This document shows, one piece after another, positions 9,836 through 16,415 of a DNA stretch of 24,000 nt; within the stretch, counting starts at the first letter, position 1, and the number at the start of each line of letters is the position of its first letter. The DNA lies in NCBI GenBank assembly GCA_002255025.1, contig NJEJ01000003.1, positions 3,132 to 27,131 of the forward strand. Reading direction: 5' to 3'. Made by a program: the position numbers and the translations under genes. The stretch comes from Candidatus Bathyarchaeota archaeon ex4484_135. Lineage in GTDB: Archaea; Thermoproteota; Bathyarchaeia; EX4484-135. The notes under the pieces are model-generated. The model had not been told where the DNA came from. It made no database searches and was given only the letters and a program-made list of their open reading frames with translations.

Positions 9836-11491
9836 ATGGCATATCTGGCAGGCACCCCGGTCTTGATACTCAAGGAGGGCTCGACGAGACGTAGGGGACG
9901 TGAGGCCCAGAGGAACAACATAATGGCTGCCCGCATAATAGCCGAGGTACTGAGGTCAACGCTTGGCCCCAGGGGCATGGACAAGATGCTCATAGACAGC
10001 TTAGGCGACATAACCATAACGAACGATGGTGCTACCATACTGGATGAGGTAGAGGTCGAGCACCCGGCCGCCAAGATGATGGTCGAGGTAGCCAAGGCAC
10101 AGGACGACGAGGTCGGAGACGGCACTACCACAGCCGTTGTCCTGGCCGGCGAGCTCTTGAAGGAGGCCGAGGAACTCCTGCTCCAGAACATCCATCCGAC
10201 CATAATAGTAAGCGGCTTCAGGAAGGCTGCCCAGAAGGCCCGTGAGATACTGCACGAGATAGGCAAGGACGTGGACTTGGATGACCGCGAGACCCTGAAG
10301 AAGATAGTCATGACCAGCATGGCCAGCAAGGCCGTTGGAGGTGCCAAGGAGCACCTGGCCGAGATAGCCATAGATGCCATAAAGCAGATAATCGAGAAGA
10401 GGGGCGATAAGCTGGTCGCGGACGTAGATCAAATACAGGTCGTGAAGAAGGAGGGCAAGAGCCTCCTCGACAGCCAGCTCGTGAAGGGCGTCATAATAGA
10501 CAAAGAGGTCGTCCACCCAGGCATGCCCAAGCGTGTTGAGAACGCTAAGATAGCCCTCCTGAACTGCCCGCTCGAGATAGAGAAGACGGAGTTCGATGCC
10601 GAGATACGCATAAGGGCCCCCGAGCAGATGAAGGCCTTCCTCGACCAGGAGATGAAGATACTGAAGAGCATGGTGGAGAAGATAAAGAAGGCCGGTGCCA
10701 ACGTGGTGTTCTGCCAGAAGGGCATAGATGACGTAGCCCAGCACTTCTTGGCCAAGGAAGGCATCTTGGCCGTGAGGCGTGTGAAGAAGTCCGATATGGA
10801 GAAGCTGGCCAGAGCCACGGGTGCTAGGATCGTGACGAACTTGGACGACCTTAAGCCTGAAGACCTTGGCGAGGCCGAGCTCGTTGAAGAACGCAAGATA
10901 GGCGAGGACAAGATGGTCTTCGTGGAAGGCTGCAAGGACCCGAAGAGCGTGGCCATACTCATAAGGGGCGGTCTCGAACGCATGGTCGACGAGGCCGAGA
11001 GAGCCATCCACGATGCCCTTTGTGTCCTGTCCGATATAGTGGAGTGCCCGAAGGTAGTTGGGGGCGGTGGTGCTGCTGAGGCTGAGCTGGCCAAGAGGCT
11101 GAGGCAGTATGCCACCGAGCTCGGCGGCCGTGCCCAGATGGCTGTTGAGGCCTTCGCTAACGCCCTGGAGATAATACCGAAGACCCTGGCCGAGAACGCT
11201 GGCCTCGACCCGGTGGACGTTATGGTAGCCCTCAGGCACGCACACGCCGAGCCCGGCAAGGAGGGCTGGGGCGTGGATGTGTTCGAGACGGACTCGAAGA
11301 AGGCCGTTAAGGACATGTTCGAACTCGGCGTGCTGGACCCGGTCAGGGTGAAGGAGCAGGCCATAAAGGCCGCGACCGAAGTAGCCTGTATGATACTGCG
11401 TATAGACGACGTCATAGCGGCCGGCAAGATGAAGGAGGAAGAGGAGAAGGAAGGCGGCGGAGAGGAGACAGAAGGGATCTCCGAGTTCTGA
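9836..11491 (+). CDS. ths: Thermosome subunit (group II chaperonin)
   Basis: 551 aa. Canonical blocks [35 protein letters not shown] and VVGGGGAAE, plus a Glu/Gly-rich C-terminal tail. Confidence 0.95.
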
Positions 11492-11612: not shown

Positions 11613-11689
11613 GCTCCGGTGGTGTAGCCCGGAAGCATGGCGGCCTCTCGAGCCGCAGGTCCCGGGTTCAAATCCCGGCCGGAGCACCA
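11613..11689 (+). tRNA. tRNA-Glu (anticodon CUC), genomically encoded CCA
   Basis: Cloverleaf folded by hand. Acceptor GCTCCGG/CCGGAGC, D-arm GTGT/GCAT, anticodon stem GCGGC/GCCGC with loop CT-CTC-GA, and T-arm CCGGG-TTCAAAT-CCCGG. Discriminator A is at 11686 and CCA at 11687-11689. Confidence 0.9.
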
Positions 11690-11795
11690 ATCTCCCATCT
11701 GCCCCCACACGACCTCTCCCAATATCCTTAGTTTAAAAATGACTTTGTGACTCTCAAAAACCGGCAAAGGGCATGTGTAGCTAAAAATCGCCTCT

Positions 11796-12413
11796 TCACC
11801 TAAGCAAATGCCAGAGAGCTAAGTCCGCATAAGGCCACTCCTCAGGGGTAAACATCTGCGGTGTTAAGTTAAATTGTCGTAACCGATCCACAAATGTTTG
11901 AGGTATGCTTATTATGCTAGCTGGAGGCATAGGATAACACCAGACCCGGTGAAGTTCGCAAATGAACCAAAAGGCAGTCTGTGGCCCAAAGCCAGGGCTT
12001 CCTAGTAATTGATTATAGAAATGCGCAATGTTACTGCTTAGATTTGGATCGGGGTGCCCCCGTCTTTTAGTTAGAACCTGGTAGTTAGTTGCAATTCTAA
12101 TAGCTGATTCTAGCGCCAATCTTTCGTTACGGCCTAATGCCAGGTTCCTTATAAGGGTATTAAACGCACCTTGTTGGAGTTTCTGCTTAAGAAAGGCAAA
12201 TAATGATTGTTTTGCCTTAGCGGCTCTGAATCGTAATTCATATAGTTTCCAGTTCGCGTAATCATCTCCAAGGTTTCCCGTAGTCAGAGAAACGAATACA
12301 AGGCATTCAAATGGGGACTCCCAGGTTATTTGTTTTGCCAACACTTCACCTAAAGTTACTAGAAGCTTCTTTAACAGAGACACGGGTACGTTCACTCTAG
12401 GGACCTGCGACAT
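11796..12413 (-). CDS. Hypothetical protein in a low-GC pocket; possible degenerate helix-hairpin-helix (DNA-glycosylase-like) fold
   Basis: 205-aa ORF with no overlapping competitor. A TTTAAT box at 12440-12445 (minus strand) lies ~27-32 nt upstream of ATG 12413. GC is about 43% in a hand-counted line, against ~58-65% in flanking genes. The segment LLGSPGFGPQTAFWFICEL looks like an HhH hairpin. Family assignment is very tentative. Confidence 0.45.
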   Translation of the reverse strand: MSQVPRVNVPVSLLKKLLVTLGEVLAKQITWESPFECLVFVSLTTGNLGDDYANWKLYELRFRAAKAKQSLFAFLKQKLQQGAFNTLIRNLALGRNERLALESAIRIATNYQVLTKRRGHPDPNLSSNIAHFYNQLLGSPGFGPQTAFWFICELHRVWCYPMPPASIISIPQTFVDRLRQFNLTPQMFTPEEWPYADLALWHLLR

Positions 12414-12504
12414 TATGCATCCCTCTGAAGATTCTCCTCATTAAACGATTTTAAGCCCCATCCGCTCACAGATGGTCCCCCAGAAGATGGTTTAGCAGCC
12501 GTTT

Positions 12505-13134
12505 ATGAGCCCTGCGGCCTTAAGGCCTTCGATGAAGGAGGAGCTGGACGAGAAGGAATCGGAAATCCTAGGTATAATGTTCGGCGATGGCTCGGTCCGC
12601 CCGACCTTGAGGTCCCTCAAGATAGAGGTGTCAGGGCACAAGGTGGATGACAGAGATTACCTGCTGGGCCATGTAAGCGGCCTTTTCAGGGAGGTCTTCG
12701 GCCTCAAGATGCGGCCTTACTACAGGAGGAAGGAGAACTCCATGGTCATATATGCTTATTCTCAGCAGGTCGGGCTAGAACTTCACGAGTGGGGAATGCC
12801 CATAGGCTCTAAGGTGCGGGCCATCTTAGTCCCGAGGGTTTCCGTCAAGACCGTGCCGTTCATCAGAGGCCTCTTCGACACGGATGGCTGCATCTACAGG
12901 AAGTATGGCCCCTACGCACAGGTCCAGTTCAAGAGTGCCTCCAGGGATCTCATGAATTACGCCAGGGGGTTGTTAGTATCCTTGGGCTTCAGGCCGACTG
13001 CCGTAATCAAGGACGAGAGCCGCTTTAAGTTCTACATATGTCGTCAGGTGGAGGTCGTGAGGTTCATTAGGGTCATCAGGCCAGCTAACAAGAAGCACAT
13101 GGAGCGTTTTAAGGCCGTACTAAAGGGCTTCTGA
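12505..13134 (+). CDS. Free-standing double-motif LAGLIDADG (DOD) homing-endonuclease-family protein
   Basis: 209 aa with two LAGLIDADG-type motifs about 90 aa apart (ILGIMFGDGSV and FIRGLFDTDGCIY). It is not embedded in an intron or host protein reading frame. An alternative ATG lies at 12532. Confidence 0.75.
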   Translation: MSPAALRPSMKEELDEKESEILGIMFGDGSVRPTLRSLKIEVSGHKVDDRDYLLGHVSGLFREVFGLKMRPYYRRKENSMVIYAYSQQVGLELHEWGMPIGSKVRAILVPRVSVKTVPFIRGLFDTDGCIYRKYGPYAQVQFKSASRDLMNYARGLLVSLGFRPTAVIKDESRFKFYICRQVEVVRFIRVIRPANKKHMERFKAVLKGF

Positions 13135-13197
13135 GGAAGCCGAAATCTTAAAATACCCTCCTTTAGCTCTCAAGCCCGCAGGAGACAGTTGGGAAAG

Positions 13198-13333
13198 GGG
13201 GCCGTGGCCCAGCCAGGAAGGGCGGCGGGCTCCAGAGCACTACGGGTTCGCTCGACCCGCTCGTGCGGGGATGAAGAAGCTCTGGAGCGGAGGAACCCGT
13301 AGGTCCGGGGTTCAAATCCCCGCGGCCCCACCA
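13198..13333 (+). tRNA. tRNA-Trp (anticodon CCA) with a ~59-nt intron at the canonical 37/38 position and encoded CCA
   Basis: Folded by hand. Acceptor GGGGCCG (13198-13204) pairs with CGGCCCC (13323-13329). D-arm is GCCC/GGGC. The anticodon stem GCGGG (13225-13229) is completed only by CCCGT at 13296-13300. The loop reads CT-CCA-G then intron then A. T-arm is CGGGG-TTCAAAT-CCCCG. Discriminator A is at 13330 and CCA at 13331-13333. Confidence 0.85.
13236..13294 (+). other. tRNA-Trp intron (boundaries +/- 2 nt)
   Basis: These 59 nt must be removed to join the anticodon loop to the 3' anticodon stem strand. The intron contains GCTCTGGAGC (13279-13288), perfectly complementary to GCTCCAGAGC (13229-13238), which spans the anticodon. 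It also has an internal hairpin at 13237-13266. Confidence 0.7.
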
Positions 13334-13365
13334 GGTCCGGGGTTCAAATCCCCGCGGCCCCACCA
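13302..13365 (+). repeat. Perfect tandem duplication (2 x 32 nt) of the tRNA-Trp 3' end (part of the variable loop, T-arm, 3' acceptor strand, discriminator, CCA)
   Basis: GGTCCGGGGTTCAAATCCCCGCGGCCCCACCA occurs at 13302-13333 and again, identical and directly abutting, at 13334-13365. Confidence 0.95.
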
Positions 13366-13369
13366 CAGG

Positions 13370-13374
13370 TTTTT
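13370..13374 (+). terminator. Oligo-T termination signal after the duplicated tRNA-Trp 3' end
   Basis: A TTTTT run lies 4 nt after the second repeat copy. Archaeal RNA polymerase terminates at T tracts. Its position implies both repeat copies are transcribed. Confidence 0.4.
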
Positions 13375-13408
13375 AATTCGGCCAGCCCATTTAGCTCGGG
13401 CCGCCGAG

Positions 13409-14269
13409 ATGGCATGGATCAGCCTTATCCTGCTGTTCCTGCTGGGCCTCTCGGTCACTACGCTGGCCTCTATGGTGGGCCTGGCCGGCGGGACGGTGAT
13501 CTCGCCCGTGCTTATAATGGGCTTTGGCCTCGAGCCGAGGTTCGCCATAGGGGCCACGGTGCTGTCCGTTTTCCTAGCCATTATATCGGCTTCTCTGGCC
13601 TACATGAGGGAGGGCAGGGTTGATTACAAGCTGGCTTTGCTCTTCGATGCCTTGGATGTGGCCGGCGTGGCTGTAGGTGCTTACGCCACGGTGGTCCTTA
13701 GGCCCGAGTTGTTGGCCCTGGCCCTTGGGGTCTTCTTGCTCTACTCGGGCCTCAGGAACATTAGGAGGGCCATCTGGGGTACCGGCTGGGATGGGCCTGT
13801 TACTGGAGTAGAGCGGGGGAGAACTCTCTGGACTGGACACATCATTGATAGGGAAGGCCGTTGCTTTACTTATGCCCTGGGGCCGAGGGAAGTAGTCTTG
13901 GCTGTCGTGGGGAGTTTCTTCAGCGGCCTTGTCTCGGGCATGTTGGGCCTCGGTGGCGGGCTGGTTGACCTGTCCCTGATGTTGATGGTAGGCATACCCT
14001 TTGAGGTCGCCGTTGCAACGGCCACGTTCGGCATGCTGCTCACTAGGGCGAGCTCCATAGCGGCCCACGCCATCTTGGGCAACATAAGGCCGGACGTGGC
14101 CATCCCCTTAGGCGTGGGGGCTTTCCTCGGGGGCCAGATAGGGCCGAGGTTATCGGGGCGTGTGAGCCCTAGGCTGTTAAAGGCCTGTCTCTCGTTCTTG
14201 GCCTTCTTCTTAGGCCTGGCCCTCCTCCTGCAGGCCCTTAGGGCCCTGTTCATCGTTAGGCCCTGGTGA
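13409..14269 (+). CDS. TauE/SafE (DUF81) family membrane permease (sulfite/organosulfonate exporter-like)
   Basis: Highly hydrophobic with multiple predicted TM helices and two Gly-rich halves (MVGLAGGTVISP; MLGLGGGLV), typical of TauE/SafE. The longest ORF (13271) runs through the tRNA-Trp gene, so ATG 13409 (MAWISLILLF...) is taken as the start. Confidence 0.7.
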   Translation: MAWISLILLFLLGLSVTTLASMVGLAGGTVISPVLIMGFGLEPRFAIGATVLSVFLAIISASLAYMREGRVDYKLALLFDALDVAGVAVGAYATVVLRPELLALALGVFLLYSGLRNIRRAIWGTGWDGPVTGVERGRTLWTGHIIDREGRCFTYALGPREVVLAVVGSFFSGLVSGMLGLGGGLVDLSLMLMVGIPFEVAVATATFGMLLTRASSIAAHAILGNIRPDVAIPLGVGAFLGGQIGPRLSGRVSPRLLKACLSFLAFFLGLALLLQALRALFIVRPW

Positions 14270-14319
14270 GGGTGGCCTTCTTATCCTGGCCCTGGCCAGG
14301 GATCTCGGAGGCCCCTGGG

Positions 14320-15498
14320 ATGGGAGAACTCCTCATGACGCCTGGGCCAGTCATGCTCTCCTCAAGGGTCATAAGGGCCCTCTCTAGGCAGGCCTGTAGC
14401 CACGTGAGCCAGGAGTTCGCGGAGGCTCTGTCCGAGACGAGAGATATGCTGAAGGAGGTCTTCAGGACGTCTCATGACGTCGTCATAGCCCCTGGCTCGA
14501 GCTCGCTGGGCCTCGAAATGGCCATAGCGAACTCCGTGAGGCCCGGTGATAAAGTCATAGTGGTCTCCTCGGGCTACTTCTCGGACAGGATCGCCGAGGT
14601 AGTCAGGCGGCACAGGGGCATCCCGGTCTTAGTGGGCGGGGACCCGAGGAAGGGCGTAAGCGTCGAGGCCGTTGAAGAGGTCCGCGACAAGCACCCGGAT
14701 GCCGTGGCCCTGTGCGTCGTGCACGTGGAGACCTCGACGGGCGTGGTCAACTCGGTCGAGCGTATAGGCCGCCTGGCCCGGGAGGAAGGCCTGTTGCACA
14801 TAGTAGATGCGGTCTCATCCGTGGGAGGCATGGATGTCAGGACGGACGAATGGGGCATAGATTACTGCGTGGCCGGTCCTCAAAAGGCCCTCGCGGCCCC
14901 ACCTGGCCTGGCCCTCTTATCCGTGAGCCAGGAGGCACTTGATATGGCCAACTCCAGGCCTGAGGACCCGTTCACCTTCTACATGGACGTCAGGGGGTGG
15001 GTCAGGGCCATGAGGGACCCGTTCAAGCGTTACGTGACGCACGCGGTCCACCTGGTGTTCGCCCTGAAGGAGGCCTTGAGTGTAGTCCTTGAGGAGGGGC
15101 TGGAGAGGCGTTTCGAGAGGCATCGCCTCTTAGCTGAGGCCGTGCGGAGGGGCGTCAGGGCCTTAGGGCTCAAGCTGTTCCCTGAAGAAGGCCACGAAGC
15201 TGATACGCTCACGGCCATAGAAATGCCGGAGGGCATATCGAGCAGGGTGGTGGCCGAGCTGATGCTAGAGCGTGGCGTCAGGGTGGCACCTGGCTGGGGC
15301 GAATACGCTGAGCGTGTGTTGAGGATAGGGCACATGGGCAACATAGGAGCCGAGCACGTCCTAAGGACTCTCTCCTGCCTCGAGTCAGCCCTATCTGAGC
15401 TAGGCTTTGAGGCTGAGGGAGCCGTAAAGGAAGCTTCATCTTACCTCTCGGGATTCGACCAAGAGATATTGAAGCCGCCGGATGAGATACCGTGCTGA
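14320..15498 (+). CDS. Class V pyridoxal-phosphate aminotransferase (serine-pyruvate/alanine-glyoxylate aminotransferase-like)
   Basis: N-terminus LLMTPGPV, the HVETSTGV block and the PLP-lysine context GPQKAL are typical of AGXT/SGAT-type enzymes. The ORF opens at 14266 (alternative start overlapping the TauE stop). ATG 14320 is preferred. Confidence 0.85.
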   Translation: MGELLMTPGPVMLSSRVIRALSRQACSHVSQEFAEALSETRDMLKEVFRTSHDVVIAPGSSSLGLEMAIANSVRPGDKVIVVSSGYFSDRIAEVVRRHRGIPVLVGGDPRKGVSVEAVEEVRDKHPDAVALCVVHVETSTGVVNSVERIGRLAREEGLLHIVDAVSSVGGMDVRTDEWGIDYCVAGPQKALAAPPGLALLSVSQEALDMANSRPEDPFTFYMDVRGWVRAMRDPFKRYVTHAVHLVFALKEALSVVLEEGLERRFERHRLLAEAVRRGVRALGLKLFPEEGHEADTLTAIEMPEGISSRVVAELMLERGVRVAPGWGEYAERVLRIGHMGNIGAEHVLRTLSCLESALSELGFEAEGAVKEASSYLSGFDQEILKPPDEIPC

Positions 15499-16415
15499 GG
15501 GGATATGCTTTGGTCGAAAAAGAAGTCCTCCGTTCTAAGTTCGTGGGCAGCCTCCTCGGGACGGCGGTAGGCGATTCCCTAGGAGCCGGTAGATGGCTCA
15601 GGTCTGCTGGCCGTGAGCTATCGCCTTTCTACACGGACGACACCCACATGACCATAGGCGTGGCTGAATCGCTGGTGGATAAGAAGGGCTTCGATAAGGA
15701 CCACATGCTCGAGACCCTCGTGAGGAACTGGGAGCGTGAGCCTTGGAGGGGCTACGGCCCTGGCCCGCCCAGGATATTCGCGGCCTACAGGCGTGGCGAG
15801 GACCCATATGAGGTCGCGAGGAACCTCTACCCTGGCGGCTCCTACGGGAACGGAGCTGCCATGAGGGTCGCCCCAATAGCCTGCTTCTACTATGATGACT
15901 TAGACAGGTTAAAGGAGGTCGTTTATGAGGCGAGCAGCATAACACATGCCCATCCGCTTGGGAAGGAAGGGGCCTTCCTGCAGGCCTCGGCCATAGCCCT
16001 GGCCGTAAGGACCGAGCCGGGCCATCTGGACCCGTTTGATTTCGTTGAACAGCTCAGGGCCCTGATGGAGCATGACGTATATGTGAGGAAGCTAAATATC
16101 ATAAGGCGTTTCCTGAGTTCACGACCAACTAAATCCCAAGTCATAAGGGAGCTGGGGAACTCGGTTGAGGCCTTCAACTCGGTCCCGACAGCCATATACG
16201 CCTTCCTGGCTCACGACCAATTCGAATCAGCTCTTAGGTACGCGGTCAGCTTAGGAGGTGATTCGGACACGATAAGTGCTATGACGGGGGCCATAGCTGG
16301 TGCTTATCACGGCCGGGAGGCCATACCGGACCGTTGGCTGGCCGAATTGGAGAACAAAGATTACATAGAACATTTGGCTGTGAGGTTATGGAAGATTAAG
16401 GTAAAATGTCTTTAG
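15492..16415 (+). CDS. ADP-ribosylglycohydrolase (ARH/DraG) family protein
   Basis: 307 aa. Family motifs GSLLGTAVGDSLG, TDDTHMT, GNGAAMRVAP and GGDSDTISAMTGAIAGAYHG. The GTG start overlaps the aminotransferase stop by 7 nt. Confidence 0.85.
   Translation: MLRGYALVEKEVLRSKFVGSLLGTAVGDSLGAGRWLRSAGRELSPFYTDDTHMTIGVAESLVDKKGFDKDHMLETLVRNWEREPWRGYGPGPPRIFAAYRRGEDPYEVARNLYPGGSYGNGAAMRVAPIACFYYDDLDRLKEVVYEASSITHAHPLGKEGAFLQASAIALAVRTEPGHLDPFDFVEQLRALMEHDVYVRKLNIIRRFLSSRPTKSQVIRELGNSVEAFNSVPTAIYAFLAHDQFESALRYAVSLGGDSDTISAMTGAIAGAYHGREAIPDRWLAELENKDYIEHLAVRLWKIKVKCL

Follow-up and report, generated by a model that had tools for sequence, protein, structure and literature searches.

The 24,000-nt window that we analysed (the whole stretch of DNA, taken from the metagenome-assembled genome, MAG, of Candidatus Bathyarchaeota archaeon ex4484_135) contains a perfect head-to-tail duplication of the last 32 nt of a tRNA-Trp gene. 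We consider this duplication to be probably an artefact of assembly or else a young mutation of an ordinary kind, rather than a scar left by a mobile element. Precisely, the reading that we prefer, with a probability of about one half, is that a local error at a scaffold join produced the second 32-nt copy, which would be absent from the genome of the organism. The att-site and endonuclease readings of the initial annotation, considered below, were not supported.

Geometry of the duplication

The features of the locus are collected in Table 1. Tandem Repeats Finder reported a perfect tandem repeat at 13301-13365 of the window (period 32, 2.0 copies, 100 % matches, zero indels, score 130) and a second repeat search agreed with it, placing the copies at 13301-13332 and 13333-13364; both confirm that the exact, spacer-free duplication described from the letters alone is real as a property of the deposited sequence. 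As the periodic stretch is 65 nt long, i.e. 2 x 32 + 1, the phase of the repeat is ambiguous by one base, and the 13302-13365 phasing used here is one of the two valid ones. There are zero bases between the two copies and no Ns at the site. The junction of copy 1 and copy 2 reads ...GCGGCCCCACCA/GGTCCGGGGTTCAAATCCC (the slash marks the boundary), and the 31-mer GCGGCCCCACCAGGTCCGGGGTTCAAATCCC is unique to the duplicated allele.

The chance expectation of a perfect 32-mer tandem repeat in 24 kb is about 24000 x 4^-32, and an origin by chance is ruled out. In 888 kb, represented by the window and the fetched archaeal loci, this repeat was the sole perfect tandem duplication with a period of 15-150, and no further anomaly of the same sort was seen in the 24-kb window. 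The microhomology at the boundary of the duplication is a single A (1 nt), which argues weakly against a simple slippage; a 4-nt AGGT lying 2 nt beyond the boundary, which would have favoured a 34-nt slip, was left unused.

Copy 1 covers variable-loop positions 45-48, the T-arm, the 3′ acceptor strand, the discriminator A73 and CCA. The repeat unit hence starts at variable-loop position 44/45 and ends at the CCA end of tRNA-Trp, and this span, from variable loop to CCA, matches the placement of the tRNA by Infernal and Rfam, as had been proposed.

Table 1 Features of the window around the duplication
Feature	Position	Strand	Evidence or remark
Thermosome	9836-11491		
tRNA-Glu	11613-11689		
Low-GC ORF, 205 aa	11796-12413	-	no family match
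LAGLIDADG-domain gene, 209 aa, two LAGLIDADG-like motifs	12505-13134	+	Pfam PF14528 (LAGLIDADG_3), E = 1.8e-10
tRNA-Trp (anticodon CCA), encoded 3′ CCA	13198-13333	+	Rfam RF00005, 49.3 bits, 13198-13330
tRNA-Trp exon 1	about 13198-13235	+	split by hand
tRNA-Trp intron, 59 nt, canonical 37/38 position	about 13236-13294	+	putative splice sites
tRNA-Trp exon 2	13295-13333	+	split by hand
Copy 1 of the 32-nt unit, GGTCCGGGGTTCAAATCCCCGCGGCCCCACCA	13302-13333	+	true tRNA-Trp 3′ end
Copy 2 (extra 32 nt)	13334-13365	+	no counterpart in all other assemblies of its own and related populations
CAGG + TTTTTAAT	13366-13377	+	compared across the window, L127-129, L138, L037, L124 and L137
TauE/SafE-family membrane protein gene	13409-14269	+	Pfam PF01925, E = 4.9e-38

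The tRNA-Trp gene

Infernal with Rfam placed a tRNA with an insertion of ~60 nt in the anticodon loop. Read by eye, this loop is CUCCAGA, which makes the gene a tRNA-Trp(CCA), and the CCA end is encoded at 13331-13333. ARAGORN did not recognise the intron-containing tRNA-Trp, either in the window or in any related locus; in the window it called instead a spurious ‘tRNA-Leu(caa)’ at 13284-13365, composed of both copies, and it did so because the 32-nt duplication is present.

The anticodon-loop region (GCTCCAGAGC) has an exact complement in the 3′ part of the intron (GCTCTGGAGC), the two segments being at 13229-13238 and 13279-13288 of the window. The intron also includes GATGAAGA, with no clear box C/D set, and it had no Rfam family match; at a permissive threshold Rfam gave, around the duplication, only sub-threshold tRNA-like noise.

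In free-energy folding, the minimum-energy structure of the intron-containing precursor was not a tRNA and is uninformative. When the 5′ acceptor strand was paired with either copy 1 or copy 2, the predicted values were -45.3 and -47.1 kcal/mol, respectively, hence within 2 kcal/mol of each other. The idea of two competing 3′ halves is consistent with these figures, according to which the alternative cloverleaves would be almost isoenergetic.

The 3′ third of tRNA-Trp is also a dispersed identical repeat, common to tRNA-Trp and tRNA-Pro(GGG). In fact, the same terminal 33-mer, from variable loop to CCA, is found in the tRNA-Pro(GGG) genes of L086 (5368-5446) and L101 (2350-2428), which are other Bathyarchaeia, and of L094 (4356-4434), which is among the same tRNA-Pro(GGG) set, a set that includes a Hermodarchaeota MAG.

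Comparison with related loci

We collected related loci in several ways. A scan of GTDB species genomes with a 22-mer of the T-arm and acceptor gave at least 120 loci, the majority of them tRNA-Pro and other tRNAs of Desulfurococcales; L037 was the only syntenic locus among the matches listed, which did not include the source MAG itself. A metagenome scan with a tRNA-Trp-specific 35-mer added seven more loci, and further contigs were obtained by exact-protein look-ups with TauE, the LAGLIDADG protein (both start variants), the 205-aa ORF, the thermosome and the aminotransferase.

Three independent assemblies were 99.0-99.7 % identical to the window with matching flanks, and each carries a single copy: L127 (JGI Ga0180302; 10 mismatches in 3311 nt), L129 (ERZ584659, SPAdes; 15 mismatches in 3483 nt, with a LAGLIDADG protein identical to that of the window) and L128 (ERZ27227321, MEGAHIT; 38 mismatches in 3907 nt, with a TauE protein identical to that of the window). 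The sole indel separating the window from these three contigs is the extra 32 nt of the window. Each of them reads ...GCGGCCCCACCA/CAGGTTTTTAATTCGG..., so that the single-copy junction consists of the tRNA body, CCA and CAGGTTTTT. The more distant relatives L037, L121-L126 and L137 are single-copy too. Each of the 11 related contigs that span the junction has one copy, and in these syntenic contigs no degenerate second copy was found at ≤10 mismatches. Among the 120 matches listed for the 22-mer, none of the other archaeal loci has a tandem copy.

The duplication is therefore private to the window and not ubiquitous at related tRNA-Trp loci. Its absence from strains that are 99.0-99.7 % identical agrees with the suggestion that the event is recent, whereas the alternative suggestion, that the two identical copies are kept by selection, is not supported, as the duplication was found in one assembly only and is conserved in no relative.

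Several assemblies break in this region. The contigs L131, L134 and L136 (the last in SRR6301444), which are 100 % identical to the window, all end before covering the duplication; precisely, in assembly ERZ23491052, L134 covers 11647-13273 and L131 covers 13496-15781, and the stretch with the duplication is left unassembled between them. Other contig ends lie in or next to tRNA-Trp: L133 and L135 end at 13319 and 13247, respectively, L127 begins at 13211 and L138 begins at CCACCA. All the related Bathyarchaeia loci that we fetched, of which several come from one metagenome, share the last 69 nt of the tRNA (13265-13333) without a mismatch, and their flanks differ. The end of L133 corresponds to the first 55-mer inside this shared 69-nt block, and in our reading the break may be the one expected from a de Bruijn graph with k = 55.

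A SNP-free zone (12684-13845) spans both sides of the junction, and a shift in SNP density is uninformative as a sign of a chimera. The LAGLIDADG gene of L135 (ERZ27227318 k141_728347) is a mosaic, in which the 5′ two-thirds match the window exactly and the 3′ third is like the L037 type; co-occurring strains that recombined, or else a chimera made in assembly, would account for it.

Gene neighbourhood and 3′ flank

The TauE gene is the conserved downstream neighbour of tRNA-Trp (synteny in L037, L122, L124, L126-129 and L137), and it is followed by a class-V aminotransferase gene and then by an ADP-ribosylglycohydrolase gene. Between tRNA and TauE lies a T-run, TTTTTAA (13370-13376). In the window, in L037 and in L137 it keeps a fixed distance (-39 to -33) to the start codon of TauE, and it belongs to a CAGG(C/T)TTTT(T)AA motif that stands, across relatives, 33-39 nt upstream of that codon (window 13366-13377, L037 2912-2923, L137 about 215-228). 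The initial annotation had taken this element as a T5 terminator. The T-run could indeed terminate the tRNA transcript, but it is probably the TATA box of TauE as well, given its constant spacing from the start of that gene; a promoter function is here suggested by the sequence comparison.

The 3′ flank of tRNA-Trp is indel-prone. In L037, L121, L122, L124 and L125 a cassette of ~800 bp stands between CCA and the conserved CAGGyTTTTAATTCG. The cassette (L037 2101-2911) is a vapBC-like toxin-antitoxin pair on the opposite strand, absent in the clade of the window, and encodes a PIN-like protein of 160 aa (a marginal match, 23.3 bits) and a MazE/AbrB-like protein of 74 aa; no tRNA-derived repeat flanks it. 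In L126 and L137 there is, in place of the cassette, a spacer of ~90-120 nt, and a part of this spacer can still be made out in the L037 insert, at its right end. This native tRNA-TauE spacer has been lost in the clade of the window, where the CCA end is 4 nt from the TATA-like element and the tRNA abuts the TauE promoter.

A second variable site is just 3′ of tRNA-Glu. The window carries there a low-GC island of ~760 bp (11717-12476) containing the 205-aa ORF, which is unannotated in the NCBI record and had no match in Pfam, PHROG, PADLOC and NCBIfam. L133-L136 have the island and L037, L124 and L125 lack it; the contigs L128 and L129 start close to its right edge, at 12456, and L121 has a different insert of ~2.2 kb at the same place. 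This site is a strain-polymorphic insertion hotspot.

Search for attachment sites

We considered what an integrase-mediated insertion at the tRNA 3′ end would have left. Two direct copies of a tRNA 3′ segment are there, at 13302-13333 and 13334-13365. No mobile DNA with an integrase lies between them, as there are zero bases and no integrase gene, and among the 11 related contigs we found neither an occupied state nor a decayed second copy (≤10 mismatches).

The search for an attP matching the 32-mer, which had been proposed as a check, was also negative. In IMG/VR, the 32-mer, the 22-mer and a 20-mer of acceptor plus CCA had 0 exact matches, in a kind of scan that diverged sites can escape, and a 21-mer of the T-arm had 19, all with other acceptor stems. 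In INPHARED phages and PLSDB plasmids, blastn found no cognate attP, the only matches being heterologous sites of Aeropyrum pernix spindle-shaped virus 1 (APSV1) and of an Acidianus fusellovirus. Beside these sites, the attP searches as a whole gave unrelated viral tRNAs only.

A pair of tRNA 3′ ends was seen elsewhere. In L009 (4459-5531) and L040 (CAYNPH010000016.1, a Desulfurococcaceae MAG) two tRNA 3′ ends with 14 nt of identical trailer are 1051 bp apart, with a HicB-like 84-aa ORF between them and a third copy of the 22-mer elsewhere on the contig. This pair has the look of a true att-type duplication that encloses a small cassette.

Origin of the duplication

The proteins of the window are OYT53024-OYT53026 of Candidatus Bathyarchaeota archaeon ex4484_135, encoded on a contig of 37,852 bp. 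This MAG was obtained from Guaymas Basin sediment by ESOM binning of IDBA-UD scaffolds (k 75-105, 2 x 125 bp reads), and the curation reported for it is a contamination and binning clean-up only, with no report of local assembly error correction (PMC5569505). IDBA-UD metagenome scaffolds are prone to local assembly errors (Chen et al. 2020, Genome Res 30:315; PMC7111523), and the recurrent types include sequences doubled at scaffold joins despite their overlap and incorrect repeat numbers (PMC7111523).

What is established directly is that the second copy is restricted to one scaffold, that this scaffold came uncurated from IDBA-UD, and that assemblies break in tRNA-Trp. As for the mechanism, two contigs overlapping in the 3′ end of tRNA-Trp would have been joined without full removal of the overlap, so that 32 nt were written twice; the real locus would then have the single-copy form, in which tRNA-Trp-CCA is directly followed by CAGGTTTTTAATTCGG and the TauE gene. 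In favour of such an error we count that the duplication is private to a single uncurated IDBA-UD scaffold with which three near-identical assemblies disagree, that it falls in a region where other assemblers break, and that it does not recur (0 of the other archaeal loci among the 120 listed). Against it, k ≥ 75 exceeds the 65-nt repeat, and the de Bruijn graph alone therefore cannot create the duplication, a scaffolding or local-assembly step being needed. In such a step, contigs would be joined on an estimated distance. Also against an artefact are the lack of Ns at the site and of any similar anomaly elsewhere in the window, the divergence of 0.3-1 % of the comparison assemblies (the 100 %-identical contigs end outside the site), and the right edge of copy 1, which is exactly at the CCA end; a random join would not predict this edge, unless one of the contigs stopped at the point just after the tRNA where the sequences of co-occurring strains part. 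The repeat has the same boundaries as the 33-mer that tRNA-Trp has in common with tRNA-Pro(GGG) in L086 and L101. We rejected an overlap artefact of k-1 = 32 at this 33-mer, which needs a k of ~33, while k = 75-105 was used.

The main rival is a genuine event, namely a very recent, strain-private and functionally neutral tandem duplication that arose while the DNA was replicated or repaired. In a tRNA gene, which is highly transcribed and forms hairpins, a stalled fork could have led to template switching; another possible route is that staggered nicks were filled in. We hold such a duplication to be quite possible, at rather less than even odds. The deposited sequence has both copies without Ns, and with an assembly k (≥75) larger than the repeat a contig built from reads shows two copies only if the reads do. 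The zero divergence between the copies and their absence from relatives at 99.0-99.7 % would fit a young mutation, the 3′ flank has other real indels (the vapBC-like cassette in five of the relatives and the spacer loss), and the near-isoenergetic cloverleaves indicate that the allele would not be forbidden. Nevertheless, the duplication was seen in a single uncurated assembly, and the second copy is missing from three independent assemblies of near-identical strains; moreover, the boundary microhomology is only 1 nt, random slippage would not account for an edge lying precisely at the CCA end, and perfect repeats of this kind are rare (0 others in 888 kb).

An integrase footprint of the attL/attR type at the 3′ end of tRNA-Trp, which could be due to an SSV-type or other tyrosine recombinase or to an abortive staggered cleavage by a Cas1-family integrase followed by fill-in, we judge very unlikely. 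The duplicated segment, from variable loop to CCA, is of the kind used as attP by archaeal viruses: APSV1 has AGGTCCGGGGTTCAAATCCCCGCGGGCCCACCA, identical at 32 of 33 positions, inside its SSV-type integrase gene, the 33-mer also ends tRNA-Pro(GGG) in two other Bathyarchaeia (L086 and L101) and would thus be a reusable target, and in L009, from another archaeon, two tRNA 3′ ends form a true att-like pair. However, the spacer in the window is zero, no integrase or fragment of one is nearby (the neighbouring ORFs are LAGLIDADG, TauE and aminotransferase), no remnant copies exist in the 11 related loci, the attP-like matches in phages and plasmids come only from viruses of unrelated hosts (Aeropyrum and Acidianus), and the genuine pair of L009 differs in that its repeats reach into the trailer and stand 1 kb apart. 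Tyrosine recombinases exchange strands 6-8 nt apart, and conservative site-specific recombination restores a single att on excision; we know of no pathway by which it would give two att copies with zero spacer. The proposed attL/attR pair, or collapsed integration, is thus not borne out, given the lack of intervening DNA, integrase, degenerate copies and matching attP. Casposon target duplications are of 14-15 bp, and a casposon or CRISPR-type target duplication was rejected, since there is no insert and the known duplication lengths do not fit. A variant in which the duplication is real and arose by fill-in of a 32-nt staggered double nick at the att borders of the tRNA, made by an integrase that inserted nothing (an ‘empty’ target-site duplication), seems to us still more improbable; if true, it would offer a natural test of the choice between 3′ halves by an archaeal pre-tRNA.

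Least credible of all, we think, is that the duplication is a repair scar of LAGLIDADG cleavage, or a functional duplicate (a second 3′ half or processing signal) maintained by selection. The LAGLIDADG gene does lie just upstream of tRNA-Trp, as had been pointed out, ending 63 nt before it, it keeps both acidic motif residues (GDG and TDG), and its protein has weak homing-endonuclease matches in PADLOC and PHROGs. However, the gene is a long-standing resident in conserved synteny with tRNA-Trp and under purifying selection (dN/dS 0.08-0.11 against L037 and L121, relatives at dS 0.6-0.7), and the relatives that have it all show single-copy tRNA ends, including L129 with its identical LAGLIDADG protein. 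LAGLIDADG enzymes make staggered cuts with 4-nt overhangs, which cannot explain a duplication of 32 nt. A repair scar is not supported on any of these grounds, and neither is a selected duplicate, given the lack of conservation in any relative.

Implications

If the duplication is real, copy 1 would be transcribed first, hence would fold first and complete a normal tRNA, and copy 2 would form a 32-nt 3′ trailer with a hairpin, situated before the T-run and presumably cleared by 3′ processing. The bases upstream of the TauE promoter are unchanged, both alleles ending in ...CCCCACCACAGG, and no phenotype would be expected. The duplication would then be a young neutral mutation of minor interest, another event in an indel-prone tRNA 3′ flank beside the gain or loss of the vapBC-like cassette in relatives.

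In either case, a clean duplication of a tRNA end in a public MAG calls for caution: it tempts to integrase or homing-endonuclease stories, and yet it is private to one uncurated scaffold. As the ARAGORN call indicates, it also misleads tRNA finders.

Comparison with known systems

The att repeats of archaeal SSV-type elements, such as APSV1 of Aeropyrum pernix, resemble the duplication in being direct repeats from variable loop to CCA, with an APSV1 attP that agrees at 32 of 33 positions, but the window has no element between the copies and no integrase, the collections searched gave no cognate attP, and conservative recombination is not known to yield a pair without spacer. As in spontaneous short tandem duplications, the repeat of the window is perfect, head-to-tail, young and strain-private, and lies in a hairpin-forming, highly transcribed region, although it differs from them in its 1-nt microhomology and in a boundary placed exactly at the end of the tRNA. 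The local errors of IDBA-UD often leave Ns at joins, unlike the duplication in the window, but the assembler is the same, the MAG is uncurated, the error classes described for such scaffolds include duplication at a join of overlapping contigs and an incorrect repeat number (PMC7111523), and the site is one where other assemblers break.
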